Translations under genes and position numbers: made by a program
Notes under the pieces: generated by a model
Seen by the model: the letters and a program-made list of their open reading frames with translations, nothing else
Databases searched by the model: none
What the model was told of the DNA's origin: nothing
IMG/VR virus record: IMGVR_UViG_3300043205_000021
Coordinates: 1 to 25,882 of that record
Direction: 5' to 3' (one strand)
DNA length: 25,882 nucleotides
DNA from: a virus
Lineage: Duplodnaviria > Caudoviricetes
Shown: positions 1,281 to 25,504 of the stretch, piece after piece
Layout of the letters: the number at the start of each line of letters is the position of its first letter
Numbering within the stretch: position 1 is the first letter of the stretch

Positions 1281-1286
1281 TAGTCA

Positions 1287-1793: not shown

Positions 1794-1811
1794 AAGTGAT
1801 TGGATTAGTGA

Positions 1812-2396: not shown

Positions 2397-2399
2397 AAG

Positions 2400-3158: not shown

Positions 3159-3202
3159 AAGTGAGCGCGTGGCTCACTGTCAGAATACGAACCGCGCTCT
3201 AG

Positions 3203-3841: not shown

Positions 3842-4734
3842 ATCTCCTTAATGCCAGCGAGTAATGCATCGGCGTAGTGCCGCTCGGTCCATTTGTTTCG
3901 GATATAAGCGACACCGGGTTCCCCGACGTAATCTTCCTTGCGGTGTTGAACCGCCTCTCGGATTTTGTTTGGATCAGGGTCCACGACTAGACCGAACCCG
4001 CTTTCCTCGACGAACTCACGGTTCTTCGTGCTATCGGTCATGACAACGGGCATGACGCCGCATGCCATAGCCTCAAGGGTAGCTCGTTGGCCTCCGCCCC
4101 AGTAGTCGGACGAATTGATAACGGTGTGAGAGGCGTTGAGGACGGAAGCTACCGCCTCGGCCGACAGTTCGGGTAACACCAGTCCCCCGGCGTCGCGAAC
4201 GCGCATAAACCCCATAGGGTCCGTCGCCTGGTGCCGTCCCATTACGGCGTACTTGGATCCCAGAGCCTCGGCACCAAGCCAATGACGCTTCCATGAGGCA
4301 CAAGTGGCCTGAAACACGCCGTCGAAGACTTTGGGCTGCTTCTCTGGCTTGAATATCTGTGTGTTAACGCCGAACGCGCGTTTCCAGGGAATACCTAGAG
4401 CCGAAAACTCTTCTTCGTTAAGTCTGCTCTCGACGAAGAACAGGTCAAAACCGGTGCACCATTCCTTCCTGATTGGGCCACCGGCAAATAGGAGCGCCTT
4501 CTTGAATGGGAGTTTGCGAACGGTCTCGTAATTATCGCGGTCCTTACCCGCCGCCGTGCAACAGGCTTCCCAATACAAAACGATGTCAGGGTTGAAGTCG
4601 TTGACGTCGGTGAGAGGAAAATCGAAGTATCGAACTTGATGCCGCTTCTCGATGAGTTGCATGGCCGCCCAAAGGCCGTCGCGCCACTGTCCGTATCTGC
4701 CGTCGAAGCCCTGCCAGATAAAAGCTATCTTCAT
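3832..4734 (-). CDS. Glycosyltransferase, GT-B fold (GT4-like)
   Basis: MKIAFI start, FGVNTQIFKP, and TLEAMACGVMPVV motif. Confidence 0.88.
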   Translation of the reverse strand: MKIAFIWQGFDGRYGQWRDGLWAAMQLIEKRHQVRYFDFPLTDVNDFNPDIVLYWEACCTAAGKDRDNYETVRKLPFKKALLFAGGPIRKEWCTGFDLFFVESRLNEEEFSALGIPWKRAFGVNTQIFKPEKQPKVFDGVFQATCASWKRHWLGAEALGSKYAVMGRHQATDPMGFMRVRDAGGLVLPELSAEAVASVLNASHTVINSSDYWGGGQRATLEAMACGVMPVVMTDSTKNREFVEESGFGLVVDPDPNKIREAVQHRKEDYVGEPGVAYIRNKWTERHYADALLAGIKEICG

Positions 4735-7088
4735 GCCTTTAGAATATCATTCCACCGGGCGGCTATCCTCGGCCACTCGAATTGGTGGGACCACTGCCGC
4801 GTCACACTTTCATTCCACCGATTTCCTTTAAGCACCTCGACCATTGCTTCAACCCAATCGTGTTGGGCTGCTTGACCTTCAAGACCGAAGTGGAATTGAT
4901 AGGGTTTGTTCCACGTCTCTTTAGTTTTGCTTGAATGAATTAACTTTGCAGCGGCGGTGGTGCTTTCGGGGAGGGCACCGAAGTCGGTAGCAACGACGCG
5001 AGCGCCAGCCGCTTGCGCCTTTTTGACACTGATACAGTCAATCTCGGCAAACTCAGTTGGATAGGCGAGAAAAGAAGCCTGTTGGTATAGCTTGCCCACT
5101 TCAGCTTGCGTAAGCCTGCCAAGCGTCTCAATCCCGGCATCGTCCATTTGCTTCTGCGTCTGTTTCATCCAATCTAGCTTTTTGGTGTCACTCGCAAACG
5201 AAGCTTTGAAAACTTCCCATCCGTAGGCCCACTGCAATCGAGCCTGCGGGATGCGTTTCTTCACCTCACGAAAGAGTGCAGGTAGCACGTCCATCGAGCG
5301 ATCGGGCGAACTGGTATTGATGATGAGATAGGGGTCTTTCTTAATCGGAGGGTCGCTCTCCAACAGCGCGAAGTCCATGCCGTTCGGTATGACAGCAATC
5401 TTTTCGTCCGGCACGTTCGGGAATAGCGAACGGTGAAATTGCGTCTTGACCATTATCTTCGTGACTTTAAGCAATCGTTTCGTCGTAAACTCGCCTTCTG
5501 GCACAACGTCGTGCAAGTCCACAAATATCTTTGATGAGTTGATTTCGGCGTCCAGCGGCTTGCACCAACGCCAGAGAATCGTCACGTCCTGCTTGTCGCG
5601 GTAATTCCACTCCCAGAAGGGACGGTATTCTACTTGTGCGAATTTCGCGGGCGTGAGCCTTGAAACTATTTCCGTCAGCGGTTTATGCCCACAGTTGTTG
5701 TAGACCGTCACATTCCACCCCAGCTTCGCCAGCTCGCGGGACAAGTTGATGACGGCCTCTTCGGAACCGCCAAATCCCTTGATCTTGAATAGCTCGGGAT
5801 TCCATTGGTGCTGTGTGTTGCCGCAGTAGATTACGAGGTCCCGGCCTGAGCTGGTCTGTTTGATGAAATTGGTGTTGCGGAGCGCAGCTATCGTTGGATG
5901 CGATTTAAGGGCCGTAGGAAGGCGGTCTAACTCCTGTTTGAGCTTTTCCTTGTCTTTAATCGAAAGAAGCTTCTCAGCGCGCTTTAGGGCCTTTTCCATG
6001 GCCTTGTATTCGCCTTCACCCTCCTTCACTAGTTTCTTAAGGTGGTCGTCGGTCGGGTAAATCTTCAGGCATCCCTTCAGCATCGGGAGCATGAGGTCGG
6101 GACGGTTTTTGTGATAGTAAATTTTGGCCAACAGCATCATCGGGTTGTAATCGTAGTCGCGGGGATTGAAGACAATCATGCGATTGGTCATCGGCTTGCG
6201 GACCATCCCCTGCAACACGTACTCCTCGGCCTTGTCGTAATTGCCGAATGAGAAATACAGATAGGCGAGCTGATAGAAACCATCTGGCAAAGTCGGGTAG
6301 AGGCCGATGGCGAGCTGGAGCTGTTTTATGGCTTCCTGGCGCCGGTCGAGGCCGCGGTAGCAGTCTGCGAGGCGGGAGTAGGCAAGATACTTCTCGTCAT
6401 CAGATTCGGTGGTTTCGATAAAATGCTCAAACGTGTCGATTGCTTCAGCGTATTTTGAAACGGCATATTGGGAGTTGCCCAGATTCCAAAAGGAACGCGG
6501 GTCGTCCGGCTTTACCTTTGCCGCCTCCACTGCGATCTCGAGATTGCGCTTGGCGTTTTCGTCGTGGCGTTCCTTCGTTGTGAGATGGCAGCGTTCAATG
6601 CCCTCAATGACGTGCACCTCAAACGCGCGGTTGGGCTCCATGTCCTCGTGCAAGGCGCCAACCCAACGGGTGCCCCCGTCATTCTTCACAATCATCGTCT
6701 TTTTGTGGACGACGGTAGGCTTTTTGAACTCATCCCAATCGTACAAATACCAAATGCCGAAGCCGTCTATGTGTGGGTGAGCCGCGAGGGTGTCTTTAAG
6801 CTTCTCCAGTCCGCGCCATGCATCGTCGGCATCGGACCACATGATGTAGTCGTAATCCTTCGGTACCTGCGAAAAGTTGAAATTGCGGGCGGCGGCGAAG
6901 TCGTTGCACCATTCAAAGTCTGAGAGGTGGGCCTTGTATTTCTTGGCTACCTTCGCAACAGCGTCATTAGGTTGTGTGCGGGTGATGAAAATACCGTCCA
7001 CGTAGGGGGCAATAGTCTGGAGACACCTTTCTAAGAGCTTGGCCTCTTCGTCAGTCCCGCGGACGATCATTGCGAGGGCAATTTTCAT
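4731..7088 (-). CDS. Multidomain glycosyltransferase: GT2 + TPR repeats + GT4 (about 785 aa)
   Basis: Start moved to MKIALAMIV (ATG 7088, ATGA overlap with upstream ORF); DFAAARNF and DADD (DxD); TPR-like helices (SFWNLGNSQY, AYSRLADCY, GFYQLAYLY); GT-B part with GGSEEAV, IPNGMD, EIDCISVKKAQAAG. Confidence 0.88.
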   Translation of the reverse strand: MKIALAMIVRGTDEEAKLLERCLQTIAPYVDGIFITRTQPNDAVAKVAKKYKAHLSDFEWCNDFAAARNFNFSQVPKDYDYIMWSDADDAWRGLEKLKDTLAAHPHIDGFGIWYLYDWDEFKKPTVVHKKTMIVKNDGGTRWVGALHEDMEPNRAFEVHVIEGIERCHLTTKERHDENAKRNLEIAVEAAKVKPDDPRSFWNLGNSQYAVSKYAEAIDTFEHFIETTESDDEKYLAYSRLADCYRGLDRRQEAIKQLQLAIGLYPTLPDGFYQLAYLYFSFGNYDKAEEYVLQGMVRKPMTNRMIVFNPRDYDYNPMMLLAKIYYHKNRPDLMLPMLKGCLKIYPTDDHLKKLVKEGEGEYKAMEKALKRAEKLLSIKDKEKLKQELDRLPTALKSHPTIAALRNTNFIKQTSSGRDLVIYCGNTQHQWNPELFKIKGFGGSEEAVINLSRELAKLGWNVTVYNNCGHKPLTEIVSRLTPAKFAQVEYRPFWEWNYRDKQDVTILWRWCKPLDAEINSSKIFVDLHDVVPEGEFTTKRLLKVTKIMVKTQFHRSLFPNVPDEKIAVIPNGMDFALLESDPPIKKDPYLIINTSSPDRSMDVLPALFREVKKRIPQARLQWAYGWEVFKASFASDTKKLDWMKQTQKQMDDAGIETLGRLTQAEVGKLYQQASFLAYPTEFAEIDCISVKKAQAAGARVVATDFGALPESTTAAAKLIHSSKTKETWNKPYQFHFGLEGQAAQHDWVEAMVEVLKGNRWNESVTRQWSHQFEWPRIAARWNDILKA

Positions 7089-7297
7089 ACGACGGTTTTG
7101 TGTTTGTGACTTAGTACATGAGGGTTTTGAACAGGGGACAATGTTACGGCGGCGAAGATTGCTTTCTGACGGGCGCACCATTCATGTATCGGTTTATCAC
7201 TGCGGTGCGAGCACCATGAACACTTATAAGGTCCGCTTCGCTTTAGTTGAAGTTTGGGCGTCCAGGTCGGGACTCTGCGGGGACGTTTATAAGTCAT
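7085..7297 (-). CDS. Small basic protein with possible Zn ligands (CSWC...HEWC)
   Basis: ATGA overlaps with both neighbours suggest translational coupling. Confidence 0.55.
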   Translation of the reverse strand: MTYKRPRRVPTWTPKLQLKRSGPYKCSWCSHRSDKPIHEWCARQKAIFAAVTLSPVQNPHVLSHKHKTVV

Positions 7298-7596
7298 ACG
7301 TGATGGGGTAGGGCGAATTGCTTAAAGGTGGTTGCAAACCAACGGCCACCTTCTTTGGTGTTGAACCATTTCACTCCCTCCACAGAAAGGGCCTGAACTA
7401 ACGCGGCCTGCAAGCGTTCGGATATCTCAAAGACAGCGCGTTGCTGACCATCGCCCGTGCCGAACTTGGGGTCTTTAAGAGATGCGCGATGCATCGCCAC
7501 GGCTTCGCACAGCAACCTGTACTCTTGTGGTGCCCGAAGCTTGTAGTGTCTAACGACAGTGCGAATTTGTTTCTTAAAAAGTTCGGCACTATCCAT
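7294..7596 (-). CDS. Hypothetical phage protein (about 100 aa)
   Basis: ATG at 7596 just after the capsid terminator; coupled to the downstream ORF. Confidence 0.65.
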   Translation of the reverse strand: MDSAELFKKQIRTVVRHYKLRAPQEYRLLCEAVAMHRASLKDPKFGTGDGQQRAVFEISERLQAALVQALSVEGVKWFNTKEGGRWFATTFKQFALPHHV

Positions 7597-7612
7597 ATGT
7601 CCCAATTAAACA

Positions 7613-7646
7613 ACACAAAACGCCTGCCGCAAAGCAGGCGTCTGTG
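7613..7646 (-). terminator. Intrinsic terminator after the major capsid gene
   Basis: Minus strand ACGCCTGC-tttgcg-GCAGGCGT followed by TTTGTGT. Confidence 0.8.
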
Positions 7647-7659
7647 GAGAACAATACGA

Positions 7660-8586
7660 CTAAGCCGAAAGCAGGAAGCCGTCTGCGTAGAAGTGCGAGT
7701 TCTGATTGCGAACCTCAAGGGTCATCGCGCCGTAGACCGCTCGCGGATAATACGCGCCGCCAACCGTGAGGTTGTCGATAACCGTCGGCGCAATAAGCAT
7801 TGCGACCTTCAGTTTCTCGGGGCGTATAGCCAGGATGCGGCCGGTAGCGTCGCCAGCCTGCTGGATATAGCGATGTTTGTGAATGGTGATGGTACCCATC
7901 GAAGTCTCGAACCGCGTAACGGTGCGGACGACTTCGCGGATATCAGGGATATTCACAACGCTATTCTGCTTCTGGACGAAGTTGTCAGTAACGCGCTTCA
8001 TGATGCCACCGACATAAAGATCGGTTGCAACATCGCCGTTGCTGCTCGCCCAACAATTTTCCATGAGGCCGTCCAATATCGTAGCTGAAAATACCGTGCC
8101 AGAGGTCTGGGACGTGTAGTTCGTGGACTGCGATATCGCGGCAATGATGCCTGCCATCTTCGCCACCGTGCCCGACACGCCCGAAGTGAGCGTGGAACGA
8201 ACGAGGTCGAACTCAAGGCCGTTGGAAAACTCGACAAGAGCTTTCCGGGTCTGGCGTTCAAGTTCGTTCTCGCCGGTGAAGTGAGAGACAGCGACCTGCG
8301 GACGGGTGACGCGAAGCGGCTGCGCCATTTCCTCGACGATGTTCGTGAGGAGGCTCGGCGTCGTACGAGTAGAGAAGGTGAAGTCCTGTCCCTGCTCGGT
8401 AGCGAGCGAACCTGCCGTGGCGTAGGTGTCCGTCATGTACGAGTGAACCATCGCAAGAGCCTGCGTCTTTCCCAAAAGGGAATAGATGCCGTCTTCCTTC
8501 GCGGTGATGTACTCGATGGCGTCACGCACAACATCGGTAACGATGCTGGAGTCGCCGTAGGTCTGTAATACGGCTGTTTGAGCCAT
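7660..8586 (-). CDS. Major capsid protein (SU10/DUF5309-like, HK97 fold)
   Basis: 308 aa after the scaffold gene and followed by a terminator; N-ELERQ...K...LEFDLV, MAGI, and C-terminal GAMTLEVRNQNSH features. Confidence 0.85.
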   Translation of the reverse strand: MAQTAVLQTYGDSSIVTDVVRDAIEYITAKEDGIYSLLGKTQALAMVHSYMTDTYATAGSLATEQGQDFTFSTRTTPSLLTNIVEEMAQPLRVTRPQVAVSHFTGENELERQTRKALVEFSNGLEFDLVRSTLTSGVSGTVAKMAGIIAAISQSTNYTSQTSGTVFSATILDGLMENCWASSNGDVATDLYVGGIMKRVTDNFVQKQNSVVNIPDIREVVRTVTRFETSMGTITIHKHRYIQQAGDATGRILAIRPEKLKVAMLIAPTVIDNLTVGGAYYPRAVYGAMTLEVRNQNSHFYADGFLLSA

Positions 8587-8597
8587 AGTTAGTGAGA

Positions 8598-9158
8598 CTA
8601 GGAGAGATTTTCAGCAATGGCCTTGGCGAACACACCGGCAACGTCAGAAGTAGAACTACCCTGAGCGTTGGCGATCGTGCGGGCCTCGTCCGTTATTGAT
8701 TTGTCTGCTCCTAGCCGTGAGTTAGAAGCGACAACAGATTTGGTCTGGGCAACCTTATCTGCCACTTCCGCTTTCCCGAAATAGGTCTTGAACGCCTCCG
8801 ACTGCACAACCTCGGAAAGAGGCTTGCCATTGCGCATTGCTGCGATGACGGTCTCATGCCCCTTGTATTGTGGGTTGGTGGCGAAAAATACCTGTTCTTC
8901 GAGCGATTGAACCTGAGCTGCAAGGGCTGGATCAGCGACGGGAGCGGGGTTGGCCGCATCTATCTTTTTACCGACGTAGCTCTTCGTTTCCTTTAGAGCT
9001 GCGAGTGCTGTTGGCTTGTCCTTGTAGTTCGTTCCGAGGTGCTGGTTCAACTCGGCAAGCGAAAGGGTGTCAACAACATTCTCCCCGCCTACTGCTGGTG
9101 TCAATTGAGCACCATCAGGGACGGTCGGTGAGGGATTGTTGTTTGGATCGTTATCCAT
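8598..9158 (-). CDS. Putative scaffolding protein (about 186 aa)
   Basis: Start moved to MDNDPNNN (ATG 9158); low-complexity helical protein directly upstream of the capsid gene. Confidence 0.7.
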   Translation of the reverse strand: MDNDPNNNPSPTVPDGAQLTPAVGGENVVDTLSLAELNQHLGTNYKDKPTALAALKETKSYVGKKIDAANPAPVADPALAAQVQSLEEQVFFATNPQYKGHETVIAAMRNGKPLSEVVQSEAFKTYFGKAEVADKVAQTKSVVASNSRLGADKSITDEARTIANAQGSSTSDVAGVFAKAIAENLS

Positions 9159-9249
9159 AGTAATTCTGTGTCTAGTAAGTAATGTCAGGGCTTCGTCGAC
9201 CTTCAGAGCCCCGCGTGAACCTCCAGCAGAGGCTTGCGCGGATATCCGA

Positions 9250-9555
9250 CTACGGCCTGATAATGAATCCGTCGTCCTGTGCGTTAGTGGCGGCCTCCTT
9301 AGCCGCGGCATGACCTTCGACCATGCCGGTAATCTCCTTGAGAAATTCAAAGAGTAATCCAGCGGCCATCTTGCGCGCTTTAATGGCAACTACTGCCTTT
9401 TCAGCTTCGTCGTCGTCTATGTTGGCGATGTTTTGCAAATCGAGAATTTTGTCGCCGATGAGCTTTGAGGCGATAGACCATCCGCGTGATGCGGTCATGT
9501 TGACCAGCTCCTCGCCGTCGCTCAAAACCTTCTGTGTTTCTTCGTCAGTTTTCAT
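9250..9555 (-). CDS. Small protein between portal and scaffold (Bbp19-like position)
   Basis: 101 aa, LVNMTASRGW motif, ATGA overlap with the portal stop. Confidence 0.65.
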   Translation of the reverse strand: MKTDEETQKVLSDGEELVNMTASRGWSIASKLIGDKILDLQNIANIDDDEAEKAVVAIKARKMAAGLLFEFLKEITGMVEGHAAAKEAATNAQDDGFIIRP

Positions 9556-11399
9556 CGTAGTGGTACGTTAGCTGCCTGTGAGGCCTGTTGAAGCTGAGCC
9601 AAGCCGGGCACGCCCTGCGGCGCTTGACCTGGCGCTCCGGGCATTGGCGGTCCTTGCATGGGCTGTTGGTTCGCTTTCGGCTGGCCCAATCCCAAAAGGT
9701 CAAATATCTCCTTCACGATATCCTGCTGATACTGCGGAGCCGCGGGCATGAGGCTAATGAGGTTCTGCACGGTCATAGGGACGTCCATCTCCTCGTTGGT
9801 AACTTGCACGCGGGTCTCCAGCTCCTTGGCTACAATCTCATCGAGTAGCTTGATGAACAGGTCGCCCTTGGAAAGTTGCTCCCGCGCGATGTCGATCGCC
9901 TGCTGAAACTCCTGCGGGTCCGGCAAATACCCCTGTGCGTAGTGCTGATGGAGCGCATGTTGCGCGCGGTTGGTAACGATAGTCTCTATGAGTTGCTGGA
10001 ATTTGTCGTCGTCGGTCGTGAGGCGGACCACCGTATCGGCATCCAATTCTTTGGCGAGGATGGGCAATGCGTGACGGTCCATCCATCGCTGGAGGAAGTA
10101 CCCGAGCTGGTCTTTGATGATTGAGAAGCCGGATTTAGCGTTCTGGTTCTGAATAGAAGCGTTGGTTGCTGGAGTAGAGGAGGGAAGGGCCTCGCCGGTC
10201 ACAACGTCAAAGGCATTGGTGAGCCGCTCGCTGATGGAGTTGATAACATCTTCGTCCTTGTAGCTCGTCGCTCCGATCTCCTGCACGACAAACTGCTGAA
10301 GGTCTTCGAGGTTTTGAAGCGGAATAGCGCCGTTGGATTGGAGGCGCGCGATCATGCCGGGTGTGATGCCCGCGCCTTTACGGTACTTGAAGATGCCAAG
10401 CTGTGATATGCGGGAGCGGTTAATGCGGACGTTAAAGACAATGTTGGCGTAGATTTGCAGGGTCAGTAGTCGCTCGGCAATGCCAAGGCCATACCAGCGG
10501 TTCGGAACGCGCGTGTACCAACACTCCTCGTAGGGTTTAAGGATATTCCCTTCGCTGTCCTCTTTGATATTGCCCTCGATGAGGTGGACGCGTTCTTTGC
10601 CGGGCGTATCGAGGCCAGACACAACGATATGTCCCTCCACCTCCTCATTGGAATCCGCTTTCTCACCCGTAATGAGGCTCTTAGGGATTTTGCCCCAGCA
10701 CTCATACACGTCGAGCATTTTGACGTTAGAAAAGCCGCCTGAGCGATTGCCCCACATCGGGTCAATGCGTGGGACGCCCATAGGTACGTCCTTGCGGATG
10801 CCTTGCGTGTTAATCCAGCCGTTCATGGCCTGGATTTCCTCGGGGAACATGAGGCTACGTTCAGTGAAGCGGTATGCCTGCTGAATGCTCGGCGTGGTGG
10901 GATCGAGGTAGCAGTTGAGTAGATTAACGCGGGTGAATTTGAGCTTCCCGTTTTCTTCCCATGTCTTCCAAACAGCGGTCCCGTAGATGGCCAGGTCGCG
11001 CTCGAAATCGTCAAGCGCCTGCCCGAAGTTCATCTTATCGAGCTTGTCTTTGACGAAAGCCCGTGTGAGGTCGGTTACTCCGTACCCGTTATCGTTCTTG
11101 GCCTGGAAGGTGATGTCTTTGGTGTCGAGGTCGATATTCTTGATGACCGCTTCAACGTTGATGAACGTAAGTGGATACCAAACCTTTTCCTGGTTGGTCG
11201 CCGGGTCTATCGGCTGGTCAAAAACGCCGTAATAATTCTTTTGGAGAATGCGCAGGAGTTGCCGCATCTTGAACGCGACGCGCTCGGTGATGAAAGCGGT
11301 TGCGGTCTCCCACCGCTGCCGTTCCATACGAACGATGCTGATAGCCTCACGCTCAATATCCGCATTGCGTTTCTTTGTTGCTTTGCTCTTGCGAGCCAT
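9552..11399 (-). CDS. Portal protein
   Basis: About 615 aa after TerL; IYGTAVWKTW, YLDP, VYECWG, WYGLGIAERL, TPATNA and a Gln/Pro-rich tail, as in P22/podovirus-like portals; start may be 11414. Confidence 0.85.
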   Translation of the reverse strand: MARKSKATKKRNADIEREAISIVRMERQRWETATAFITERVAFKMRQLLRILQKNYYGVFDQPIDPATNQEKVWYPLTFINVEAVIKNIDLDTKDITFQAKNDNGYGVTDLTRAFVKDKLDKMNFGQALDDFERDLAIYGTAVWKTWEENGKLKFTRVNLLNCYLDPTTPSIQQAYRFTERSLMFPEEIQAMNGWINTQGIRKDVPMGVPRIDPMWGNRSGGFSNVKMLDVYECWGKIPKSLITGEKADSNEEVEGHIVVSGLDTPGKERVHLIEGNIKEDSEGNILKPYEECWYTRVPNRWYGLGIAERLLTLQIYANIVFNVRINRSRISQLGIFKYRKGAGITPGMIARLQSNGAIPLQNLEDLQQFVVQEIGATSYKDEDVINSISERLTNAFDVVTGEALPSSTPATNASIQNQNAKSGFSIIKDQLGYFLQRWMDRHALPILAKELDADTVVRLTTDDDKFQQLIETIVTNRAQHALHQHYAQGYLPDPQEFQQAIDIAREQLSKGDLFIKLLDEIVAKELETRVQVTNEEMDVPMTVQNLISLMPAAPQYQQDIVKEIFDLLGLGQPKANQQPMQGPPMPGAPGQAPQGVPGLAQLQQASQAANVPLR

Positions 11400-11437
11400 A
11401 GCGCCATTGAACAAAAACAGCGCTAGTCAAAGCAAAC

Positions 11438-12751
11438 TTAGTTGTAACGCGTGGCGTACAATTCAACGTCGTGGTCGCCATCTAACATGCGTTCTATCCG
11501 GTTCTTCGGCTTCTCCCCTAATGGATCGCGCACATTGTCTACGGCCAATGCGAGGGACATAACCCGGTCGTCATGCATCCCATCAGGGACGGCCATTGTG
11601 AGACGCGACTTCCCTGTTTGACTGTTCGTCACTAATCGCCAAGCCACCGCCTCAAGCTCGGACACAAGGCCAGAGTCATTGGGTATTTTGATGCGATCCT
11701 GCTCTAGGAGCATTGAAAGGTTGAGCAAGAGGTTGGCCCGGCGCTGCTCGGTGAATTTCACGGCTCCTTCGGCGTCGATGTTGAGACCTTTCTGCGTAAG
11801 ACGCTCAACAATTGGATCCCCGACACCCGTAGCGTCCACCTTCAGGCGCGCGCTGTTAAAGCGATACGCCAATGCTTCAATGCGGGCCTCCTGCACATTC
11901 CAATCGACCTGATTAAATCGCTCCTGCGAATGCACATTGAAGGTATTGAGGTTAAAAGGGGTGAGGACGGTCCAATCCTGGTACTTGGCCAGGTCCACAC
12001 CCAACTGGTACGAATGCTCGGGGTCGAGCTCCAATTCGCCTTGGTAGGTGTTTTCCCGAATGCGTCTGAAAACCTGCCCGGCGCCGTCGATGAATTTGCA
12101 GTAATACTCCTGCTCGAAGATCGCTTGCGGCGCTTCCCTACGCTCGGCCTCTAGTGCCTCGGCAGGAATGGCGTGCGTGTCATCAACCGTGAGTATCTCG
12201 GCAAACCATGTGGGGTCGTCCTTGGCCTTCTGGAGCATCTCCCATGCGTGGTTCTTGCCGCGAGACGTACCATTGAAGATAACCCAGCCACCGTTGGCCG
12301 CTAGGATCGGACGTAGATAATCCCACGCTGAAGGTGAGGATATCGGCCATTCTGAAAAGACGACGCCGATGGGGTTGGTCCCGACTCCGCTTTCTTTGAA
12401 AACATCTGCGCCAATAAGTTGGATAATCGAGCCGTTGATAAGCTCAATTTTCAACTCGGTCGCATTGGTCCCTTTGATAAGTTCTCTCGGAATGTGATCG
12501 AGCATCCGAAAGCCATCATTGTCGATGTTGTCCCAAATGACTTTCTTGGCTTGCGAGTAGGTGGGTAAGAGATAAAAATAGGTGCCGACCTTTTGGGCCG
12601 CACAGCGCACCATAAAATTGAAACAAGTTTTGTCTTTGCCGCTCCGACGATGCCAGAAGATAATGGCGCGTTTTATTCCGCTATCAAGCGCTTTCAGTAG
12701 TGGGAGCTGATACGACCTCGGTTTGAACCGGTGCGGTAGTTGAATTTTCAT
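11438..12751 (-). CDS. terL: Terminase large subunit
   Basis: PRSYQ Q-motif, Walker A WHRRSGKD, Walker B variant VVFSE, FNGTSRG, QEYYCKF, RNase H-like LGVDLAK...HDDRVMSLAL. Confidence 0.93.
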   Translation of the reverse strand: MKIQLPHRFKPRSYQLPLLKALDSGIKRAIIFWHRRSGKDKTCFNFMVRCAAQKVGTYFYLLPTYSQAKKVIWDNIDNDGFRMLDHIPRELIKGTNATELKIELINGSIIQLIGADVFKESGVGTNPIGVVFSEWPISSPSAWDYLRPILAANGGWVIFNGTSRGKNHAWEMLQKAKDDPTWFAEILTVDDTHAIPAEALEAERREAPQAIFEQEYYCKFIDGAGQVFRRIRENTYQGELELDPEHSYQLGVDLAKYQDWTVLTPFNLNTFNVHSQERFNQVDWNVQEARIEALAYRFNSARLKVDATGVGDPIVERLTQKGLNIDAEGAVKFTEQRRANLLLNLSMLLEQDRIKIPNDSGLVSELEAVAWRLVTNSQTGKSRLTMAVPDGMHDDRVMSLALAVDNVRDPLGEKPKNRIERMLDGDHDVELYATRYN

Positions 12752-13103
12752 ACATGATTGGCTGCACCGTTATTTTATCACCTTTGCTGGTGATATCGGT
12801 TTCGGTCTTCTCACTGTAGCCGTGATTGGCAAGCATCAACTTTGTGATGGTCGGATTGAAAATGCTCGTGAGGCCATTGTGCACAAGCTCACGTTCTTGT
12901 TTTGCCTTCAAATCCTCTAACGTGTCCGAAAATTCAGGGTATGCCTCGGCCCATTTGTACAAAGTCGAGCGAGCGACGCCTAACACGAGGCTCAAACCCG
13001 CCACTGACGGCACGATGTCTTCGTAGGTGGTTGAGTGCTCGATATAGTCTTGCGCTTTGGCAAGCATCTCTGCGTCGTACTCAGTTGGCCGTCCGGCAGT
13101 CAT
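12684..13103 (-). CDS. terS: Terminase small subunit
   Basis: GRPTEY N-terminus, HTH (PSVAGLSLVLGVARSTLYKW...YPEF), LANHGY; overlaps the terL start by 68 bp. Confidence 0.88.
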   Translation of the reverse strand: MTAGRPTEYDAEMLAKAQDYIEHSTTYEDIVPSVAGLSLVLGVARSTLYKWAEAYPEFSDTLEDLKAKQERELVHNGLTSIFNPTITKLMLANHGYSEKTETDITSKGDKITVQPIMYENSTTAPVQTEVVSAPTTESA

Positions 13104-17709: not shown

Positions 17710-18309
17710 TTATCCCGTCTTCTGGAATTTCACGACATTCGTGTTCAACAGGCCCTTTGGCGGCAATCGAGCTTCAGTCACTCCGATGTAGCCGAGCAAC
17801 TTGCCGCTTTCGTCGCGGATTGGTACGGCGACGGTGCCGCGCATGAGGCCTTTGTTGGCGAACCCGATACCAAGGGTTCGCGCCTCTTCTTGATTGAACC
17901 CTGCGGCTTCCACGGCGGGATGCGCCGCGTCCAGGTAGTCGAGGGGGGTGAGGCCGGATGGATTAGCCGCCTCTGGCCTCTGTGGGGCTGTGGGATGCTC
18001 CTTGCTAACTGTACTGTTCTGTACAGTAGCTTGTACCGTACCTTTGCCGAGAAGCTCTGCCGCTTCGGGAAGTTTGCAGTTGCGGACATGAGCGACCAAT
18101 TGGATTTGGTCGCCACCCGATTGCGAACCGAAGCAGTAGAAGAGATTTTTCGCGGGCGTGATTGCCAATGCCCGGTCGCCGCCTGTTTTGCAGAAGGGGC
18201 ATGGGCCGCGAAGCTGGTTGGCCGATTTGGCAACCTGCAAGCCGAGCATCTGCACAGCGTCTTCGATGGACACGGCTTCTTTCAAAGCCGCAAAGTCAAT
18301 GTACGGCAT
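17710..18309 (-). CDS. Primase-type (CHC2-like) zinc-finger protein lacking a TOPRIM domain (about 199 aa)
   Basis: GGAGG Shine-Dalgarno before MPYIDFAALK; RGPCPFC...FYCFGS..GGDQIQLV; C-terminal GTVAVPIRDESGKLLGYIG resembles the start of the DnaG core. Confidence 0.8.
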   Translation of the reverse strand: MPYIDFAALKEAVSIEDAVQMLGLQVAKSANQLRGPCPFCKTGGDRALAITPAKNLFYCFGSQSGGDQIQLVAHVRNCKLPEAAELLGKGTVQATVQNSTVSKEHPTAPQRPEAANPSGLTPLDYLDAAHPAVEAAGFNQEEARTLGIGFANKGLMRGTVAVPIRDESGKLLGYIGVTEARLPPKGLLNTNVVKFQKTG

Positions 18310-18375
18310 TGCCGCCTCCATGTTGATAGCGATGCGGGGATCTTCCTTCGCCATTGTATCATTGGAGACAGAGGG

Positions 18376-18503: not shown

Positions 18504-18686
18504 ATGGCCAAAGGCCAAACGCCCGATTTCAATGTCTGCGTGTCGCGCAAGGGAAGCGACGAAAAGACCTACTACACGACGGTGGGAGCTGGTTGGCTCG
18601 TCGCCAAAGACGGCATTTCAATTCAGCTTCAATGCCTGCCGGTGGACGGCAAGCTGGTGCTGTTCCCGAAGCGGGACGACGAGTAG
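18504..18686 (+). CDS. Small beta-rich protein (DUF736-like, possible ssDNA binder)
   Basis: KTYYTTVGAGW...DGISIQLQCLPVDGKLVLFP pattern; the family assignment is tentative. Confidence 0.65.
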   Translation: MAKGQTPDFNVCVSRKGSDEKTYYTTVGAGWLVAKDGISIQLQCLPVDGKLVLFPKRDDE

Positions 18687-18691
18687 CGCAG

Positions 18692-18775
18692 TTTGGGGTG
18701 GCGGAACCGGTAGACGCGCACGGCGGTTTACCGTGTGGCCGCGAGGTCGTGAAGGTTCGACCCCTTCCCCCAGAG
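18692..18775 (+). ncRNA. tRNA-like cloverleaf (type II, Leu/Ser-like body) with non-canonical anticodon loop and no encoded CCA
   Basis: Acceptor TTTGGGG/CCCCAGA; D arm GCGGAACCGGTAGACGC; anticodon arm CACGG-CGGTTTA-CCGTG; variable arm GGCC-GCGA-GGTC; T arm GAAGG-TTCGACC-CCTTC. Confidence 0.8.
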
Positions 18776-18780
18776 CGCTA

Positions 18781-19484: not shown

Positions 19485-19507
19485 GGGGCCTATGAGGCCC
19501 CGGTTTT
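19485..19507. terminator. Hairpin between convergent genes
   Basis: GGGGCC-tatga-GGCCCC then GGTTTT. Confidence 0.5.
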
Positions 19508-19657
19508 CTCCTGTTGTTCGGACTGGCGTCTCGTCCACTTGCGCTTTGGCTTTTCGCCGCCGCTGAACATAAGGGCAATTTCAGCGTCAGTAGCCGCCAA
19601 TTCAGTTGCCAATGTCTCACGCTTATCCACCAGCTCGCGCACCCTTTGCATGTCCAT
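19490..19657 (-). CDS. 55-aa coiled-coil/basic protein coupled to the relaxase gene
   Basis: Not in ORF track; AAAGGAG Shine-Dalgarno; MDMQRVRELVDKRETLATELAATDAEIALMFSGGEKPKRKWTRRQSEQQEKTGAS. Confidence 0.7.
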   Translation of the reverse strand: MDMQRVRELVDKRETLATELAATDAEIALMFSGGEKPKRKWTRRQSEQQEKTGAS

Positions 19658-20600
19658 CGTCGTCTCCTTTGAGAAACTTAAGAATGTTGAATGTGCCCAT
19701 TGCGGTACGCCAGTCTTCCGTCACCATATGAGCGGTTGGAGGCGGAAAGTCGTCGTAGTGCAGAAAGTCGGGAAGCACCTTGACCAGGACGCGGTTGGAG
19801 AGGTGGGGGTATTTGGTTTTCACGCGATGGAGGAAGTTATCCGCGCGGTCTGGATTGATAAACACCCACGCGGCACTGGCATTGGAGATACCGTAGCGAT
19901 TACGGAATCCACCACTCGTTAGATACGCCGCTTGCCTGTCGAGCTTGCCTTCCAACGTCTGTCGGTCGTCGGTCTTGCCATTGTTCTCCGTGCCGCGGTC
20001 GGCCTCGAACGGATGGATGTAGAAGTATCGTTTAGAACCGTCAGGACGCGTGTATTCAAAGCCGAATAGCGGTGCATCGGGACGAATGTGATGCTCGGGG
20101 ACTTCGGAGTTGATTTCGAGGTTGAGGCCACTGTGGGCTATGACATCTTGAAGGGTGCGCTTCTTTAAGTTCGGAATTTCGATCTCAGCGTAGTCAAAAG
20201 AGTAAAAAGCTACCTGAGCTAAATAGTCGTGGTCGAAGCTACTGCTACCAAGTTTTTCAAAATTGCGAAGCCTGCCTGCGCTTTCAAGCATGCGATACCC
20301 ACGGGGTGCAACGACCCAAGGGCGATAGCGATAAAGCGCATTGCGGTTGTTGTAGCCGTTGGGAATGCAAATAAGGTGAGCCTTGGCTAAGAGATTTAGG
20401 CGATCGTCAATGTAGTCAGGCGTGCTGAAGGGAGCGGTGCGAATGTAGGCACTCGGAAGAATACGGCCCTGAAGAAAATCCAGAACGTCAAGGTCAGTGG
20501 CCGTGGGGTCAAGCTTGATGAGGGGCTTGGGTGCCCTATCAGCAAGGGGATTATATCGTTGTTGCCTGCGCTCCATTTTGGAGCGTATAGGGGAAGCCAT
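19623..20600 (-). CDS. Replication-relaxation (Replic_Relax, MOBC-like) relaxase/initiator
   Basis: N-terminal wHTH (TDLDVLDFL...RLNLLAKAHLI), FDHDYL, and PD-(D/E)xK-type IRPDA...FEADRGTE...KLDRQAAY. Confidence 0.8.
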   Translation of the reverse strand: MASPIRSKMERRQQRYNPLADRAPKPLIKLDPTATDLDVLDFLQGRILPSAYIRTAPFSTPDYIDDRLNLLAKAHLICIPNGYNNRNALYRYRPWVVAPRGYRMLESAGRLRNFEKLGSSSFDHDYLAQVAFYSFDYAEIEIPNLKKRTLQDVIAHSGLNLEINSEVPEHHIRPDAPLFGFEYTRPDGSKRYFYIHPFEADRGTENNGKTDDRQTLEGKLDRQAAYLTSGGFRNRYGISNASAAWVFINPDRADNFLHRVKTKYPHLSNRVLVKVLPDFLHYDDFPPPTAHMVTEDWRTAMGTFNILKFLKGDDDGHAKGARAGG

Positions 20601-20621
20601 AAAAAATTAAAAGATGGGGAC

Positions 20622-20637
20622 GTGCACCGTGGTGCAC
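20622..20637. repeat. Inverted repeat GTGCACC-GT-GGTGCAC, candidate oriT or operator
   Basis: Lies in the 63-bp gap between the coupling-protein and relaxase genes. Confidence 0.5.
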
Positions 20638-20663
20638 TACGTACATTGTATCGTGAAATAAAA

Positions 20664-22541
20664 TTATGGCTTGTCGAAAGTTTGTGAGACGGGTTCCGGC
20701 TGGGATGGCTGAGTGACTGGGCGAAGACCGTACTTTTCGTCCATCCGTTTGCGCATTGCCACATACTCGGGACGCGTCATATGCAACTCGTCCTTTTCAA
20801 ATGAGTATGGATTGACGGGAATAGTGAAGTCGCGTCTGCGGGTCTTTACGTCTACGCGTTTAATGTCGGGGCAATTGCTCTTAAGACCCGCTTGCCTGAG
20901 AGATGCTTGAATGCGGGGGTCGATCTGCTCCTCGTGATGATGAGCTACGGTCATCGAAATCTTCTGTGCCCTGGCTTTTTCCAGGATGTCAGCGAAGCGC
21001 ATATCATCTTTGATGTAGTCGTGGGCTTCATCGAGAACGACAAAGATGGGCTTGAGCTTGTTCTCGTCCAGGCGAGTTCTGCGGGATGAAAGCTGGTCGA
21101 GCAGAGCAATAAAAAGCCGCCCCAGGACATTCGTCGCCTCGGGGCTGTCGTTGCCTCTATCGGTATCCACCAAAAGCACCTTGCCCCCTTCGTGCAGGAA
21201 GTCGAAGAGGTCGAGGGCACACCTATCGGCATTGAGCATGGTGCAGAGCGTCTCATTCTCCTTAATAAAGTTGGTGATACGGGTGTGCAGGCCGCTCCTG
21301 GTTAGGGGAGGAATACGCTGGAAGGCATTGCGAAAGTAGTCTTGGGTATCGGGGTCAAACTTGAAAAAGCGATCGGGCAACTCGTCCTTTTTGAGATTAA
21401 AGAAATCGCGGATAGTCCGGAGGGTTGGGTTGGGGTAGGCGGCGGCGGCGTCGATGAGGAAGGTCAGGGCGCCAGTTTGTAAGTCGCTCGCGTCGGAAAT
21501 GCTCGCGAGCATGTAGCGCATAACATCTTTGGCTTGCTTGCGCGGCAAGTAAAACGGATTGAGGGCTATAGGGTGTTCTGGGTCTACGATGAGAACGCGA
21601 TCTTTCAGCTCGCCCAATACACTGAGCGTCCGCATTTCGGTAATGAGCTTCTTGCTATCTATAACCACGAGGGAACATTCCCAGTTCTTCACGCGCTCTA
21701 AGTCAGCTTTGATGAAGTGACGAAGGTAGGTGGTTTTGCCGGTACCATTGTGGCCTAAACACCAATGATGAGTGCAACGCGTCTCATCGTCAAATCCGAA
21801 AGGGATGTACGTTTGGAACAATTGATCGAACGGCGTTTGCTGGAAGTAGAGGTGTGCAATCTTTTGTCGCGGCCAGTCGCTCTTAAAGTGTTGAGGATAG
21901 ACCGGGGCTTCGCCGCCTCCAGCTTTCACACAGTTATTTTGGAATTGAGCCCACAAGCCATAACAGCCTGAAAGTTGAGCGTTTCGAAATGGAGAGAACA
22001 TGCCCCACGTGGCACCCGGTAAATCAATGACCTCGGCGATTGGGAGTGTGAATTGCGGAGTGGGGTAGGTGGGTAGCAGGTCGATAAACGCCTTGTAGGA
22101 TTGGGCGAATGCACGTGCGATACCGGCCTCGTCAAAGACAGCCATTCGGTGTGCGTCGCGTTCAAGTTCCTGTTTATTTGTCGGCGGCGGTAGCGTAGGT
22201 GGGAGAGAGTGCTGATAAACAGCGTAGACCGCATCGAGCATAATCTTGGTGAGGAATGGCGACGGGGTCTCGCGCCCACTTTCTTTGACCGATGCGAAAA
22301 AAGCGCGAGTGAATTTAACGAGAAAATCTTTGGGAGAAAGGACAGTCTTTTGGGCTTGCCGGGTAAGAGTTTCAAGTTCTTTGCGTTCTTGGCGGGCGAT
22401 GCGCTGTTGCTCCTCAAGCGCTTTGGACGTGGCGGCTTCACGGTTGGTGCGGTCAAGTTCCTTGCGCTTTAAATGCTTCATTAATTGGTAGATGCCAGGC
22501 GAAATCCAGGCAAGGAATAGTAGGCCGAAGAAAGTCCACAT
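20664..22541 (-). CDS. VirD4/TraD/TrwB-like type IV coupling ATPase
   Basis: N-terminal TM segment; Walker A GHNGTGKT; VVIDSK; LNPF; Walker B VVLDEAH; ILEKARAQKISMTVAHH..EQI. Confidence 0.82.
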   Translation of the reverse strand: MWTFFGLLFLAWISPGIYQLMKHLKRKELDRTNREAATSKALEEQQRIARQERKELETLTRQAQKTVLSPKDFLVKFTRAFFASVKESGRETPSPFLTKIMLDAVYAVYQHSLPPTLPPPTNKQELERDAHRMAVFDEAGIARAFAQSYKAFIDLLPTYPTPQFTLPIAEVIDLPGATWGMFSPFRNAQLSGCYGLWAQFQNNCVKAGGGEAPVYPQHFKSDWPRQKIAHLYFQQTPFDQLFQTYIPFGFDDETRCTHHWCLGHNGTGKTTYLRHFIKADLERVKNWECSLVVIDSKKLITEMRTLSVLGELKDRVLIVDPEHPIALNPFYLPRKQAKDVMRYMLASISDASDLQTGALTFLIDAAAAYPNPTLRTIRDFFNLKKDELPDRFFKFDPDTQDYFRNAFQRIPPLTRSGLHTRITNFIKENETLCTMLNADRCALDLFDFLHEGGKVLLVDTDRGNDSPEATNVLGRLFIALLDQLSSRRTRLDENKLKPIFVVLDEAHDYIKDDMRFADILEKARAQKISMTVAHHHEEQIDPRIQASLRQAGLKSNCPDIKRVDVKTRRRDFTIPVNPYSFEKDELHMTRPEYVAMRKRMDEKYGLRPVTQPSQPEPVSQTFDKP

Positions 22542-22553
22542 CAGCGCCAGAGC

Positions 22554-23324
22554 CTAGGTTGAAGTCGGCAGGAACTCGTCACCCTCAAGACCCACGATGT
22601 TACGCGGTTCGGTGTGTTTTGTGTAGATGATAAGTCGTTCCGCATCCTCCAGTGTTGTCCTATAAATCGTTTTGTCCTTTATGCCGAGAAGTGCTTGTTG
22701 AAGCTTCGGCGGGACTTCGGAGAGGGAAGTAAGGGCCGCGGTGAGGCGATTTTGGCGAATGAAGGCGGTATAAAAGTCACGGCCATAAAAGCCAAAGTCA
22801 GGGACAATCACCTGTCCTTGATACTGTCCAATTAGTAGACTGGCGAGTACGAAAGCGTCAAAATCCCCCAGCTCGGCCCGGTCTATCCTCGCCACCACAG
22901 AACCTTTGAACGAGAAATTAGTAGGGTTGCAAAGTACCCGTCTGAGCACCGGGGAAAGCAGTAGGTCCTCGATTGTTGCGAGGGCCTCGGCGTCAGCCTC
23001 GCCAGAGGATTTGAGGTGATCTAGCCTGCCTGGATTATCCAGCAACAGTCGGGTCAAAGCTCGTTTGCCGTTGCGAACGGTGAGCGTGTTTTCCCCTTGT
23101 GGGGAAGCGGTGTAGACAGCGGCGGCAAAATCCCGCGCACGTTTGTAATCCATCCCTCGAAGGGGATTGAAGCTGTGAACGGTAGGGTCAAATAGTTTCG
23201 CGCGGGGAAAGGTCTCAAGAAAAGCATCGGCGATCGGGCCGTCGTCAATAAGTAAAAACGGTGGTTGTGCAATTTGTAAAAGCCGTTCTGTTTTGTCGGC
23301 GTTGCCGATTAGAAGTGCATTCAT
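22554..23324 (-). CDS. Degenerate coupling-protein-like (inactive P-loop) protein
   Basis: LLIGNADKT (eroded Walker A), LLIDDG, SFNPL, LGDFDAFVLASLLI, VIVPDF (eroded Walker B), in the same order as in the neighbouring ATPase. Confidence 0.6.
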   Translation of the reverse strand: MNALLIGNADKTERLLQIAQPPFLLIDDGPIADAFLETFPRAKLFDPTVHSFNPLRGMDYKRARDFAAAVYTASPQGENTLTVRNGKRALTRLLLDNPGRLDHLKSSGEADAEALATIEDLLLSPVLRRVLCNPTNFSFKGSVVARIDRAELGDFDAFVLASLLIGQYQGQVIVPDFGFYGRDFYTAFIRQNRLTAALTSLSEVPPKLQQALLGIKDKTIYRTTLEDAERLIIYTKHTEPRNIVGLEGDEFLPTST

Positions 23325-23425
23325 TTGGGTGGAGCAATCGCGGTGAGTAGAGCCTGTGCCTTTCAGGGAATGCTCACGGGACGCTCCACCGCTAAAGGTA
23401 CTGTCCAGTAGAAATTATACAACGC

Positions 23426-23542: not shown

Positions 23543-23745
23543 CTAGTGGTAACTCCGCCCAACTTGTCCGTCGTGCGCGCATGCGCCGACCCAATGGACT
23601 TTACCCTGAGTGGCGACTCTTGGAGTCTGTGTCTGAAAGGAGCGACGGCGACTATAAGACCAGATGAAGGGCATTGGGTCGGGGCGTAAGCCACGCGGCA
23701 AGTTGTGGCGGAATCGTTGGCCTGTCGGCGTTTCTACGCCGCAGG
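23543..23745 (+). other. Long rod-like foldback of about 180 nt plus a 3' hairpin (ncRNA or single-strand DNA element)
   Basis: Nested TCCGCC/GGCGGA, CAACTTGTC/GGCAAGTTG, CCGACCCAATG/CATTGGGTCGG; then CCTG.CGGCG/CGCCGCAGG. Confidence 0.6.
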
Positions 23746-23817: not shown

Positions 23818-24099
23818 TCAGCTCGTCGTCACGAGCCGCAGTCCTTCTTTCGAAGGCGCGGTGCGAGCTGCTTTGCGTGCCGCGTCCCAGGCGTCAACTT
23901 CGTCAACCGGGAAGCCGATGCGACAGTTGCTTCGCTTCTTTCCCCCGAGCTTGTTGCTTGATGTGTGAACAGGCCCAAGGTGTACTCGTTGCGGAAAGCC
24001 ACAGTAGTCATCGGACTTAGGGTCTTCCCACCTGCCGATAGTTGGGCGAGAGACGTTGAACATCTGGCAGACTTCGCGCATCGTGAAGTACAGCTTCAT
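23818..24099 (-). CDS. AlpA/excisionase-like HTH protein (about 93 aa)
   Basis: ATG 24099 with GAAGGA Shine-Dalgarno; FTMREVCQMFNVSRPTIGRWE...GFPQRVHLG...RIGFPVDEVDAW. Confidence 0.85.
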   Translation of the reverse strand: MKLYFTMREVCQMFNVSRPTIGRWEDPKSDDYCGFPQRVHLGPVHTSSNKLGGKKRSNCRIGFPVDEVDAWDAARKAARTAPSKEGLRLVTTS

Positions 24100-24194: not shown

Positions 24195-25304
24195 CTAGGC
24201 GGCCCGGAGTACTGTGGAAAGGTGGGCGTCGAAGCTCTCGATCGCCACCCGCATTTCCTTGATGTAGGTGTGACGGTCGTAGATGAGTTCTACGTCGGTC
24301 GTCACCGCGGCGGCGTGATTTATAAGCCGCTCGCCGACGCTCGAAAGCGTGCCAATCTCGCCGTGGATCGTGCGAAAAGTTCGGCGCAAATCGTGCAACG
24401 TGTAGCCCTTAACAGTGCTGTAACTGTCGAGGTCTTTCTTGTACTTGCTCCACCCCGAAATGGGCCTCTCATCGCTAACCCGTGAAGGAAACAGTAGGTC
24501 AGTAGAGTTGAGGCGCGGTACGGTTTCGAGGATCGCGGCAGTCGTATCCCCGTAAGGGAACACGTGCTCTTTGTGGTTTTTGGTCAGCCAATCGGGGAGG
24601 GTGATGAGCCTGTCCCGCTCGTTAATCCAAGGCCACCGGAGATTGGCAATTTCACCCCTTCGCTGGCCCGTAGTGATGAGAAGCTGGGTGAGGATGCCGT
24701 GGGGGTAGCCCTGCGACCCTGCGGCCTTCCAGACACCTCGTAGCTCGATTTCAGACAGTACCCTTTTACGCTTCTTGGGAAGTGGGATCTGAATCCCTTC
24801 AAGGGGACTGTGGGGAATGTACCGGCGCGGCGGCCGAACGCACCACCGCAGGAAGATACGGGCCACGGTTAGGGCGTGGTTGGCTTCTCCCTTTGGGCGA
24901 CCCTTTACACACTCGATAACCTCCTCGTAGGTCAGATTGGGAAGCCGCTTGCGCTTGAGAGTCGGAAGAAAGTGCTTCTCGATGAGGCGTCGATACTCCG
25001 CCTGTACACGGGGCCGCTTGCCTTCAAGGGTGAGCTTGTAGGCGTCGTAGGCTTCCTCAAAGGCAACACGGTCATTCTTCGTGACCGTCTGTTGAAGCAA
25101 GCCCTTGGCCTCTTTGCGGGCGTCTGCGAGGCTCTTAGCCGGGTAATGCCCGATTGTGGTTCGAAGCCGTTGCGTGCCTCGAATAACGAACCAGGTCTTA
25201 CGATGCTTGCCGACGCGAATACCAAACGCGGGCGTCGTAGTGTCAAAGTGCTCGCCGATTTCCTGAAGGCGAGACACCGCTAGATCGGTGAAGTGAAGCT
25301 TCAT
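24195..25304 (-). CDS. int: Tyrosine integrase with N-terminal arm-binding domain (about 369 aa)
   Basis: TGQRRGE (R), TKN (K), HDLRR, INH, IYD (Y); N-terminal FGIRVG...KTWFV...TIGHYPAKSLADAR. Confidence 0.95.
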   Translation of the reverse strand: MKLHFTDLAVSRLQEIGEHFDTTTPAFGIRVGKHRKTWFVIRGTQRLRTTIGHYPAKSLADARKEAKGLLQQTVTKNDRVAFEEAYDAYKLTLEGKRPRVQAEYRRLIEKHFLPTLKRKRLPNLTYEEVIECVKGRPKGEANHALTVARIFLRWCVRPPRRYIPHSPLEGIQIPLPKKRKRVLSEIELRGVWKAAGSQGYPHGILTQLLITTGQRRGEIANLRWPWINERDRLITLPDWLTKNHKEHVFPYGDTTAAILETVPRLNSTDLLFPSRVSDERPISGWSKYKKDLDSYSTVKGYTLHDLRRTFRTIHGEIGTLSSVGERLINHAAAVTTDVELIYDRHTYIKEMRVAIESFDAHLSTVLRAA

Positions 25305-25458: not shown

Positions 25459-25504
25459 ACTTCGAATCTGGGGGTCGGGGGTTCGAATCCCTCCGAGCGC
25501 GCCA
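25459..25504 (+). other. att site: 3' half of tRNA-Arg (anticodon loop to CCA)
   Basis: ACTTCGAATCTGGGGGTCGGGGGTTCGAATCCCTCCGAGCGCGCCA; no D arm or 5' acceptor strand upstream. Confidence 0.88.

Follow-up and report, generated by a model that had tools for sequence, protein, structure and literature searches.

Temperate phages with a shared core of coupling-type ATPase, MOBC-type nuclease and conserved hairpin

The stretch of DNA analysed here, in the following called the window, is the whole virus record IMGVR_UViG_3300043205_000021 (25,882 bp; Caudoviricetes). It belongs to one member of a large group of temperate phages of Xanthobacteraceae-type (rhizobia-related) alphaproteobacteria that share a core composed of an integrase, a hairpin, a TrwB-like ATPase, a Replic_Relax nuclease and a CHC2 protein. 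This core likely originated from a mobilisation module of a MOBC nuclease and its coupling protein and likely serves as the phage replicon, a reading to which we assign a probability of about one half. Movement as a phage and movement by conjugation are usually regarded as the work of distinct machineries. In this group, a coupling-type ATPase, a MOBC-type nuclease and a candidate single-strand origin form the common centre of dozens of phage genomes that are otherwise unrelated. Such a phage architecture on mobilisation-type genes is real and recurrent, and apparently undescribed. Should the module replicate the phage, it would be a novel kind of replicon for phages, and the coupling-protein motor would have a novel task. 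Should it still transfer DNA, these phages would be dual-route elements whose mechanism can be seen, in contrast to the named "conjugative prophage". Direct tests of the question are made possible by the predicted nick region, the hairpin and the natural nuclease variants without the tyrosine.

Replication is favoured because, outside the virion genes, no core other than this module is shared by the viral members, because no other replicon was found, and because the family tyrosine of the nuclease and the membrane anchor of the ATPase have often been lost. Among 109 open reading frames (ORFs) of G001 and G002, both circular phages, no gene for a polymerase, helicase, primase, initiator or CI was recognised, and none was recognised in the scanned ORF subsets of the prophages G775, G1194, G1195 and G1199, which are bounded by attachment sites (att). 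Gene scans of the window covered 30-34 ORFs, leaving ~10.4 kb of the element outside, and in agreement with an earlier reading of the window (the sequence-only reading) none of these ORFs was recognised as a CI, polymerase, helicase or VirB gene. That reading had put a conjugatively mobilisable phage into its headline and had offered the repurposing of the same proteins for replication as its alternative; it is the alternative that we favour, and the headline less so. The core and its immediate surroundings consist of the following features:

24195..25304, minus strand: tyrosine integrase with Arm-DNA-binding domain (PF00589, PF13356; phrog_1)
23818..24099, minus strand: excisionase-like gene, xis (phrog_66, E 1.3e-4; TIGR01764 below cut-off)
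23553..23713, plus strand: long imperfect hairpin with arms at 23553-23595 and 23673-23713, candidate single-strand origin or origin of replication or transfer
23544..23551, plus strand: TAGTGGTA motif next to the hairpin, possible nick site or binding site
23322..23423, minus strand: stem-closed leader with a TATAAT box (23414-23419), running up to the start codon of the degenerate ATPase gene
22554..23324, minus strand: shortened TrwB-like ATPase paralogue with decayed Walker motifs, 256 aa (hhalign, alignment)
20664..22541, minus strand: TrwB/VirD4-like ATPase, 625 aa (Foldseek, hhalign, motifs)
19623..20600, minus strand: Replic_Relax (MOBC-type) nuclease, 325 aa (PF13814 on relatives, folds, residues)
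19490..19657, minus strand: conserved 55-aa ORF overlapping the nuclease end (tblastn; same place in L002, L005, L009 and L014)
17710..18315, minus strand: CHC2 zinc finger with an N-terminal DnaG fragment (PF01807), without TOPRIM domain, a member of the core

The window element and its relatives

The gene run of the window belongs to one ~36-kb prophage. A 35,924-bp contig spans window positions 1-25488 without differences and at flat depth in two soil runs from which this DNA may come (32.6 and 48.6), and it runs 10,436 bp beyond window base 1. Because this contig is single, unbranched and of flat depth, the element comprises ~36 kb without an internal break, and its other end lies in the ~10.4 kb outside the window. 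A coverage break was looked for and none was found, and the window contains no internal repeat, in line with the single element that had been proposed from the sequence. The description of this element as att-bounded goes beyond the window, which shows one att only:

25459..25504, plus strand: att core, 3' part of tRNA-Arg(TCG), right prophage end by sequence, with host-type DNA beyond

The assignment is supported by loose ends at 25459 and 25504, and the element contig stops at 25488, within the att core. In run X2 the depth of the element (48.6) equals that of the exact flank allele (48.8), and therefore the element looks integrated and not amplified. In the same run a second allele of the host flank (25505-25882) reaches roughly double the depth, which indicates that a related strain without this exact element coexists.

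Downstream of the integrase and xis genes, the co-oriented run that had been noticed earlier consists of minus-strand ORFs of 256, 625, 325 and 55 aa. The head and packaging module was also correctly recognised, with TerS, TerL, portal, SU10 capsid and adaptor at 2400-13103, and forms part of a longer region:

246..13103, minus strand: virion module with TerS, TerL, portal, scaffold-like ORF, SU10 capsid, adaptor and fibre-type genes, continuing past the window

With terminase, portal, HK97-type capsid, integrase and att, the element has the gene set of a tailed temperate phage. It has the genes of an integrative mobilisable element (IME) as well, namely an integrase and a relaxase-type gene without a mating pore, and so have the three capsid-less islands G004a, G005a and G118. 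It does not qualify as an ICE (integrative and conjugative element), because mating-pore genes of its own (VirB4 etc.) were recognised neither in the part of the element that the window covers nor in the complete relatives.

The family was assembled by profile searches of IMG/VR, metagenome-assembled genomes (MAGs) and metagenomes, and the module was found in 34 viral or virion-gene records. The nuclease with the adjacent ATPase is present in all 19 virion-gene elements, the window among them (in G775 TerL and portal are in pieces, G006 has tail-type genes and no terminase on its contig, and the terminase of G774 was read from the sequence). G001 (41.6 kb) and G002 (48.2 kb) are circular phages with terminal repeats, while G775, G1194, G1195 and G1199 are each bounded by a single pair of 39-53-bp tRNA repeats with the module inside. 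The TerL genes of the module-bearing elements fall into three unrelated families (phrog_2, phrog_38 and phrog_675), and both podo-type and tape-measure-type modules occur. Searching IMG/VR with the CHC2 gene yielded 20 viral loci, in all of which the nuclease is adjoining, as is the ATPase in 19 (the last is cut off). Fifteen of these loci are new records, ten of them with a TerL within the fetched flank. The query alignment was built from module-bearing elements, which biases this search towards such elements. Atlas clusters of the CHC2 protein are 63-100% viral in five of six rows.

Starting from the virion genes, 79 loci are related to the TerL of the window, and none of the 20 that have at least 5 kb upstream contains the module, so that the virion modules come from a wider pool. 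The layout of the window recurs in circular phages and att-bounded prophages and is missing from all 20 of these close TerL relatives. This absence would also fit an assembly artefact, or a tandem or chimera in which an IME adjoins an unrelated prophage, and tandem islands do occur at such sites (G008 has one upstream). However, one unbranched contig of flat depth, the lack of an internal repeat, and the same layout in two circular phages and within the single att pairs of four prophages largely refute such an origin, which we consider extremely improbable. The tandem or nested islands of G008 (L031-L033), G409 and G714 carry a second Replic_Relax gene and soluble TrwB-like ATPases at the same tRNA site.

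Outside the viral records, the nuclease profile has matches in 8 of 401 alphaproteobacterial genomes and in 34 of 401 genomes from the same family as a Xanthobacteraceae MAG, and flanks were retrieved for 24 of these further loci. G004a, G005a and G118 are att-bounded, and in them the module is accompanied by cargo but not by any recognised virion genes. One capsid-less relative is part of a complete 8.19-Mb genome. A large number of chromosomal loci besides these are located on short contigs, on which the viral or capsid-less class is not assignable. The nuclease and ATPase trees intermix viral members with the others, and at least 11 changes between the two labels are forced in one of these trees, in which the rows G008_2847 and G008_10670, both from a neighbouring island, are mis-tagged as viral. 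Mantel tests covered up to 17 viral elements, comparing nuclease, ATPase, CHC2, integrase and TerL with one another, and did not reveal significant co-phylogeny, even within the module. The gene order has thus been kept, while the genes have been exchanged or the distances are saturated.

Among the cultured phages of INPHARED there was no match for the nuclease or the degenerate ATPase and one weak match for the ATPase. Plasmid searches with two queries gave no match, and a PDB sequence search with two profiles gave nothing useful. We found no description of this alphaproteobacterial phage family in the open-licence literature, and the consulted sections of an article on phage-plasmids (PMC7969092) contain nothing on the pairing of ATPase and nuclease. 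G006 (L006) is from a MAG labelled Peribacteria that has 18 terminase matches and one family member; this MAG probably represents binned phage contigs. A cell-cycle regulator of the GcrA-like type is encoded by G002 (L025:18538-19068), which is in keeping with an alphaproteobacterial host.

Hairpin, ATPases and nuclease

The hairpin is an imperfect inverted repeat of ~170 nt, located upstream of the ATPase-nuclease operon in the interval that separates xis from the degenerate ATPase. The sequence-only reading had described the genes of this region but had overlooked the conserved hairpin (23553-23713), the conserved leader (23322-23423) and the tight link of the CHC2 gene (17710-18315). With an iterated model the hairpin was found in 27 elements, and in all 27 the strand opposite to the genes is the more stable one (background 55/96). 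Across 15 aligned copies, 16 of the 21 pairs show compensatory changes and 93% of the cells pair, while none of 500 shuffles scored as high and slid controls reached ~37% pairing. The z-scores of DNA folding range from -4 to -19. CCACTA is present in or beside the hairpin in 13 of the 27 hairpin regions compared to 3.6% of random 270-nt windows. By its sequence, the strand-biased hairpin fits a single-strand origin or an origin of transfer (oriT). It could also be possible that the region encodes an antisense RNA. The nick motif of CloDF13 was located in that plasmid, gave no convincing match to the motif of the element and was dropped. The leader was found first in 10 elements and then in more, and it accompanies the degenerate ATPase where this gene has been relocated; its covariation is weak (three of five pairs). 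Rfam contains no family for the hairpin and none for the leader.

The 625-aa ATPase has intact Walker A (GHNGTGKTT) and Walker B (VLDEAHD) motifs. Its structure model (pLDDT 89) has an all-helical N-terminus and is matched best by TrwB (Foldseek E 2.9e-9) and the Legionella coupling complex 6sz9 (1.5e-8), followed by HerA (5.1e-8) and VirB4 (6.5e-7). The earlier assignment as VirD4-like is therefore retained, with a small lead of TrwB over HerA (about one order of E-value) and with Sir2-HerA also within one to two orders. Comparison by hhalign to the soluble TrwB-like family A4 (99.4%) points in the same direction, and the model together with the motifs suggests a TrwB-type fold with Walker A and B. 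Curated coupling-protein profiles do not detect the window ATPase (TIGR03743 15.9 bits against a cut-off of 366; no PF10412), PF10412 being found on its relatives. An IMG/VR scan with the ATPase as a single protein returned no matches, and alignments were required. The N-terminal segment is weakly hydrophobic, with a best hydropathy of 1.41 for 19-mers and 1.72 for 15-mers, and the transmembrane anchor that had been read from it is not confirmed. Clear N-terminal hydrophobic segments are present in 12 of 19 plus 4 of 12, together 16 of 31, full-length viral ATPases, although in some the anchor may be encoded on an upstream ORF; the Walker motifs of the viral ATPases are retained. Membrane tethering, as had been envisaged for the replication alternative, is therefore not a general property of the family.

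The 256-aa ORF, already termed a degenerate ATPase, is by its sequence a shrunken and motif-decayed member of the soluble TrwB-like family (hhalign A3 versus A4 97.7%, E 2e-12, 243 columns), other members of which occupy the same position in other elements. Direct profile comparison to the main ATPase is not significant, and the link runs via family A4. Queried with the 256-aa protein, 401 order-level genomes gave, besides G007, only weak matches to longer proteins. In G775, G1194, G1196, G1197 and G1199 (L086, L121, L123, L124 and L127) the degenerate ATPase is located at the far end of the element, often together with the leader and sometimes with the hairpin, and would come near the integrase only after circularisation.

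The 325-aa protein is a predicted nuclease of the Replic_Relax/MOBC type. Its own match to PF13814 (15.7 bits) is below the Pfam cut-off of 25.3, and therefore the assignment rests on relatives: PF13814 is found on 9 of 27 homologues and exceeds the cut-off in the family members G001 (31.5 bits), G003 (32.3) and G008 (47). The structure model contains a MarR-like winged helix (Z 9.4, rmsd 2.9, 77 aligned) and gives weak matches to restriction endonucleases (FokI/MunI, E 0.014-0.02), which suggests a winged helix and a PD-(D/E)xK-type domain with a D...E-x-D/E pattern. Relatives and folds thus agree with the Replic_Relax protein named in the sequence-only reading, while the score of the protein itself does not reach the threshold. 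According to the sections considered, MOBC relaxases are related to restriction endonucleases (PMC11389934) and PF13814 is linked to plasmid replication and relaxation (PMC3424549); those of PMC4219350 describe the pXO1-14/16 replicon and state no link to PF13814. The window nuclease retains H124, D175, E199 and D201, and Q223 replaces the family tyrosine, which is located four residues after a conserved lysine. The H, D and E residues are kept in all 34 viral records. The tyrosine is present in 26 of the 34 viral and in all 26 other sequences, so that it has been lost in eight viral records, including the window, compared to none of the 26 other loci with a residue at this position (p 0.008); counted as six lineages the difference has a p of 0.03, with one alignment doubtful. 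Kinship to MobC/MobB of the CloDF13 type was tried by profile-to-single-sequence comparison, which has low power, and was not significant.

A PD-(D/E)xK-type nuclease beside an ATPase that has HerA and Sir2-HerA structures within one to two orders of TrwB would also fit a HerA-type defence or anti-superinfection pair. However, the position between xis and CHC2 is fixed in all members, and the hairpin is conserved in cis. The all-helical N-terminus of the ATPase model and PF10412 on its relatives also speak against such a role, which we regard as very unlikely.

Replication, transfer and other roles

If the module is a replicon, the nuclease would bind the origin of the excised element via its winged helix and nick beside the hairpin, and a ring of the ATPase would act as the DNA motor. 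The displaced strand would fold into the hairpin, at which second-strand synthesis would be primed, possibly aided by the primase-derived CHC2 protein, and the rolling-circle product would feed the terminase. For rolling-circle concatemers a nick that gives a 3' end should suffice, whereas conjugation would need a covalent pilot and docking to a pore. A route without covalent pilot or pore docking would explain the loss of both the tyrosine and the membrane anchor. The capsid-less siblings would be elements that have lost, or have not gained, a virion module.

Several points weigh against this interpretation. Most phage ORFs are without annotation, and therefore an unrecognised initiator may exist. 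We found no precedent for a coupling-protein ATPase as a replication motor. Most viral nucleases (26/34) have kept the tyrosine and about half of the viral ATPases the anchor; the role of this tyrosine in MOBC catalysis, a putative linkage to DNA, is what we presume from work on TraX. ArdC, a conjugation-associated anti-restriction gene, is present in the virion-gene elements G003, G007, G774, G1192, G1193 and G1194. The hairpin was not detected in G008, G775, G1197 and G1199, and where present it lies at the position where an oriT would also lie, so that it fits either role. In addition, the host MAGs are incomplete.

Working mobilisation is the alternative that these points suggest. Here, the hairpin would be an oriT, the nuclease a relaxase, and the ATPase would couple the complex to the mating pore of a helper, so that the element could leave either in a virion or as single-stranded DNA. 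By analogy to ICEBs1, such a dual-route module may also start replication. The gene pair and its order match those of MOBC elements with their own VirD4, as described in parts of PMC5704250. The capsid-less att-bounded siblings, interleaved with viral members in both trees, keep an intact integrase and cargo and need some route, and tyrosine and anchor are kept in 26/34 and 16/31 of the viral members, respectively. ArdC, DUF932 and SSB genes are present, the first two commonly, and VirB4 was found in two of five hosts of elements without virion genes, outside the elements (incomplete genomes). However, frequent loss would be expected of an accessory route, whereas all viral records examined retain the pair. 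The window copy has no tyrosine and a weak anchor, VirB4 was found in none of the five host MAGs of virion-gene elements (also incomplete), and there is no detectable similarity to CloDF13-type MobC/MobB, at low power. We therefore regard mobilisation as possible but doubtful. Replication and transfer are not mutually exclusive, and tentatively the elements might combine the natures of phage and IME. A single origin, nuclease and ATPase would then start lytic replication and also hand the prophage to the pore of a helper, virion modules would be swapped around the core, and capsid-less islands and infectious phages would interconvert.

It is unlikely that the pair handles the double-stranded DNA of the excised circle, in segregation, dimer resolution or delivery to packaging, with replication starting elsewhere. 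Temperate Bacillus phages also have a DNA translocase (FtsK/SpoIIIE) beside a Replic_Relax gene, namely RBClin15 (PMC11526630) and Novomoskovsk and Bolokhovo (PMC9658697), and in the relevant passages their authors read this operon as replication or segregation genes. The window ATPase belongs to the same FtsK/HerA superfamily. However, it is nearer to TrwB than to FtsK, and the strand-biased single-strand hairpin and the primase-derived CHC2 gene would be left unexplained. The phages described here also have alphaproteobacterial hosts, integrate at tRNA genes instead of being plasmid prophages, and have a hairpin and a CHC2 partner, and no separate RepA or Par system was seen.

MOBC elements with their own VirD4 and MobC include plasmids such as CloDF13 and streptococcal IMEs (PMC5704250, in part). 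They likewise have a coupling-protein-like ATPase directly upstream of a Replic_Relax nuclease, a candidate origin upstream of the pair, and, in the case of the IMEs, a tRNA-targeting integrase. In contrast, most long members of the phage family contain full virion modules, and the family has the additional degenerate ATPase and the CHC2 gene, has often lost tyrosine and membrane anchor, and shows no detectable similarity to CloDF13-type MobB/MobC. For ICEBs1, also an excised integrative element, a nicking enzyme and a single-strand origin are proposed to drive replication, started by the relaxase as rolling circle with sso1 (PMC4595007, as far as considered). Unlike the phages, ICEBs1 codes for a mating pore and does not encode a virion. 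The ICEBs1 relaxase belongs to a different family, MOBT. The "conjugative prophage" Phi1207.3 of Streptococcus pyogenes resembles the window element in being a prophage proposed to move by cell contact; in the consulted parts of its description (PMC4260502) the word relaxase is absent and the mechanism of transfer is stated as unknown. The window element, in contrast, has a relaxase-type gene and a coupling-type ATPase as candidate transfer genes.

Neighbouring genes of the window element

Between the CHC2 gene and the module there is another conserved gene, without a Pfam or named Atlas match:

18504..18686, plus strand: 60-aa ORF on the strand opposite to the module, conserved at this position in several loci (58-71% identity)

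Two further ORFs are antisense to their surroundings, 18903-19484 (plus strand, 193 aa, without match) and 14522-15112 (plus strand, 196 aa, weak DUF4145), and look like morons or defence cargo. Three glycosyltransferase genes are located between the capsid and adaptor genes (3203-7181, minus strand) and possibly serve virion glycosylation. One of these is a fused GT2-TPR-GT1 gene (816 aa), which also adjoins this TerL type in L162 and L222. At 18692-18776 (plus strand) there is a tRNA-like gene that ARAGORN identifies as tRNA-Asn(GTT) but whose variable arm is long and whose anticodon loop contains G33/T37. No similar sequence is present among the fetched loci, while a related soil contig spans this gene with two changes.

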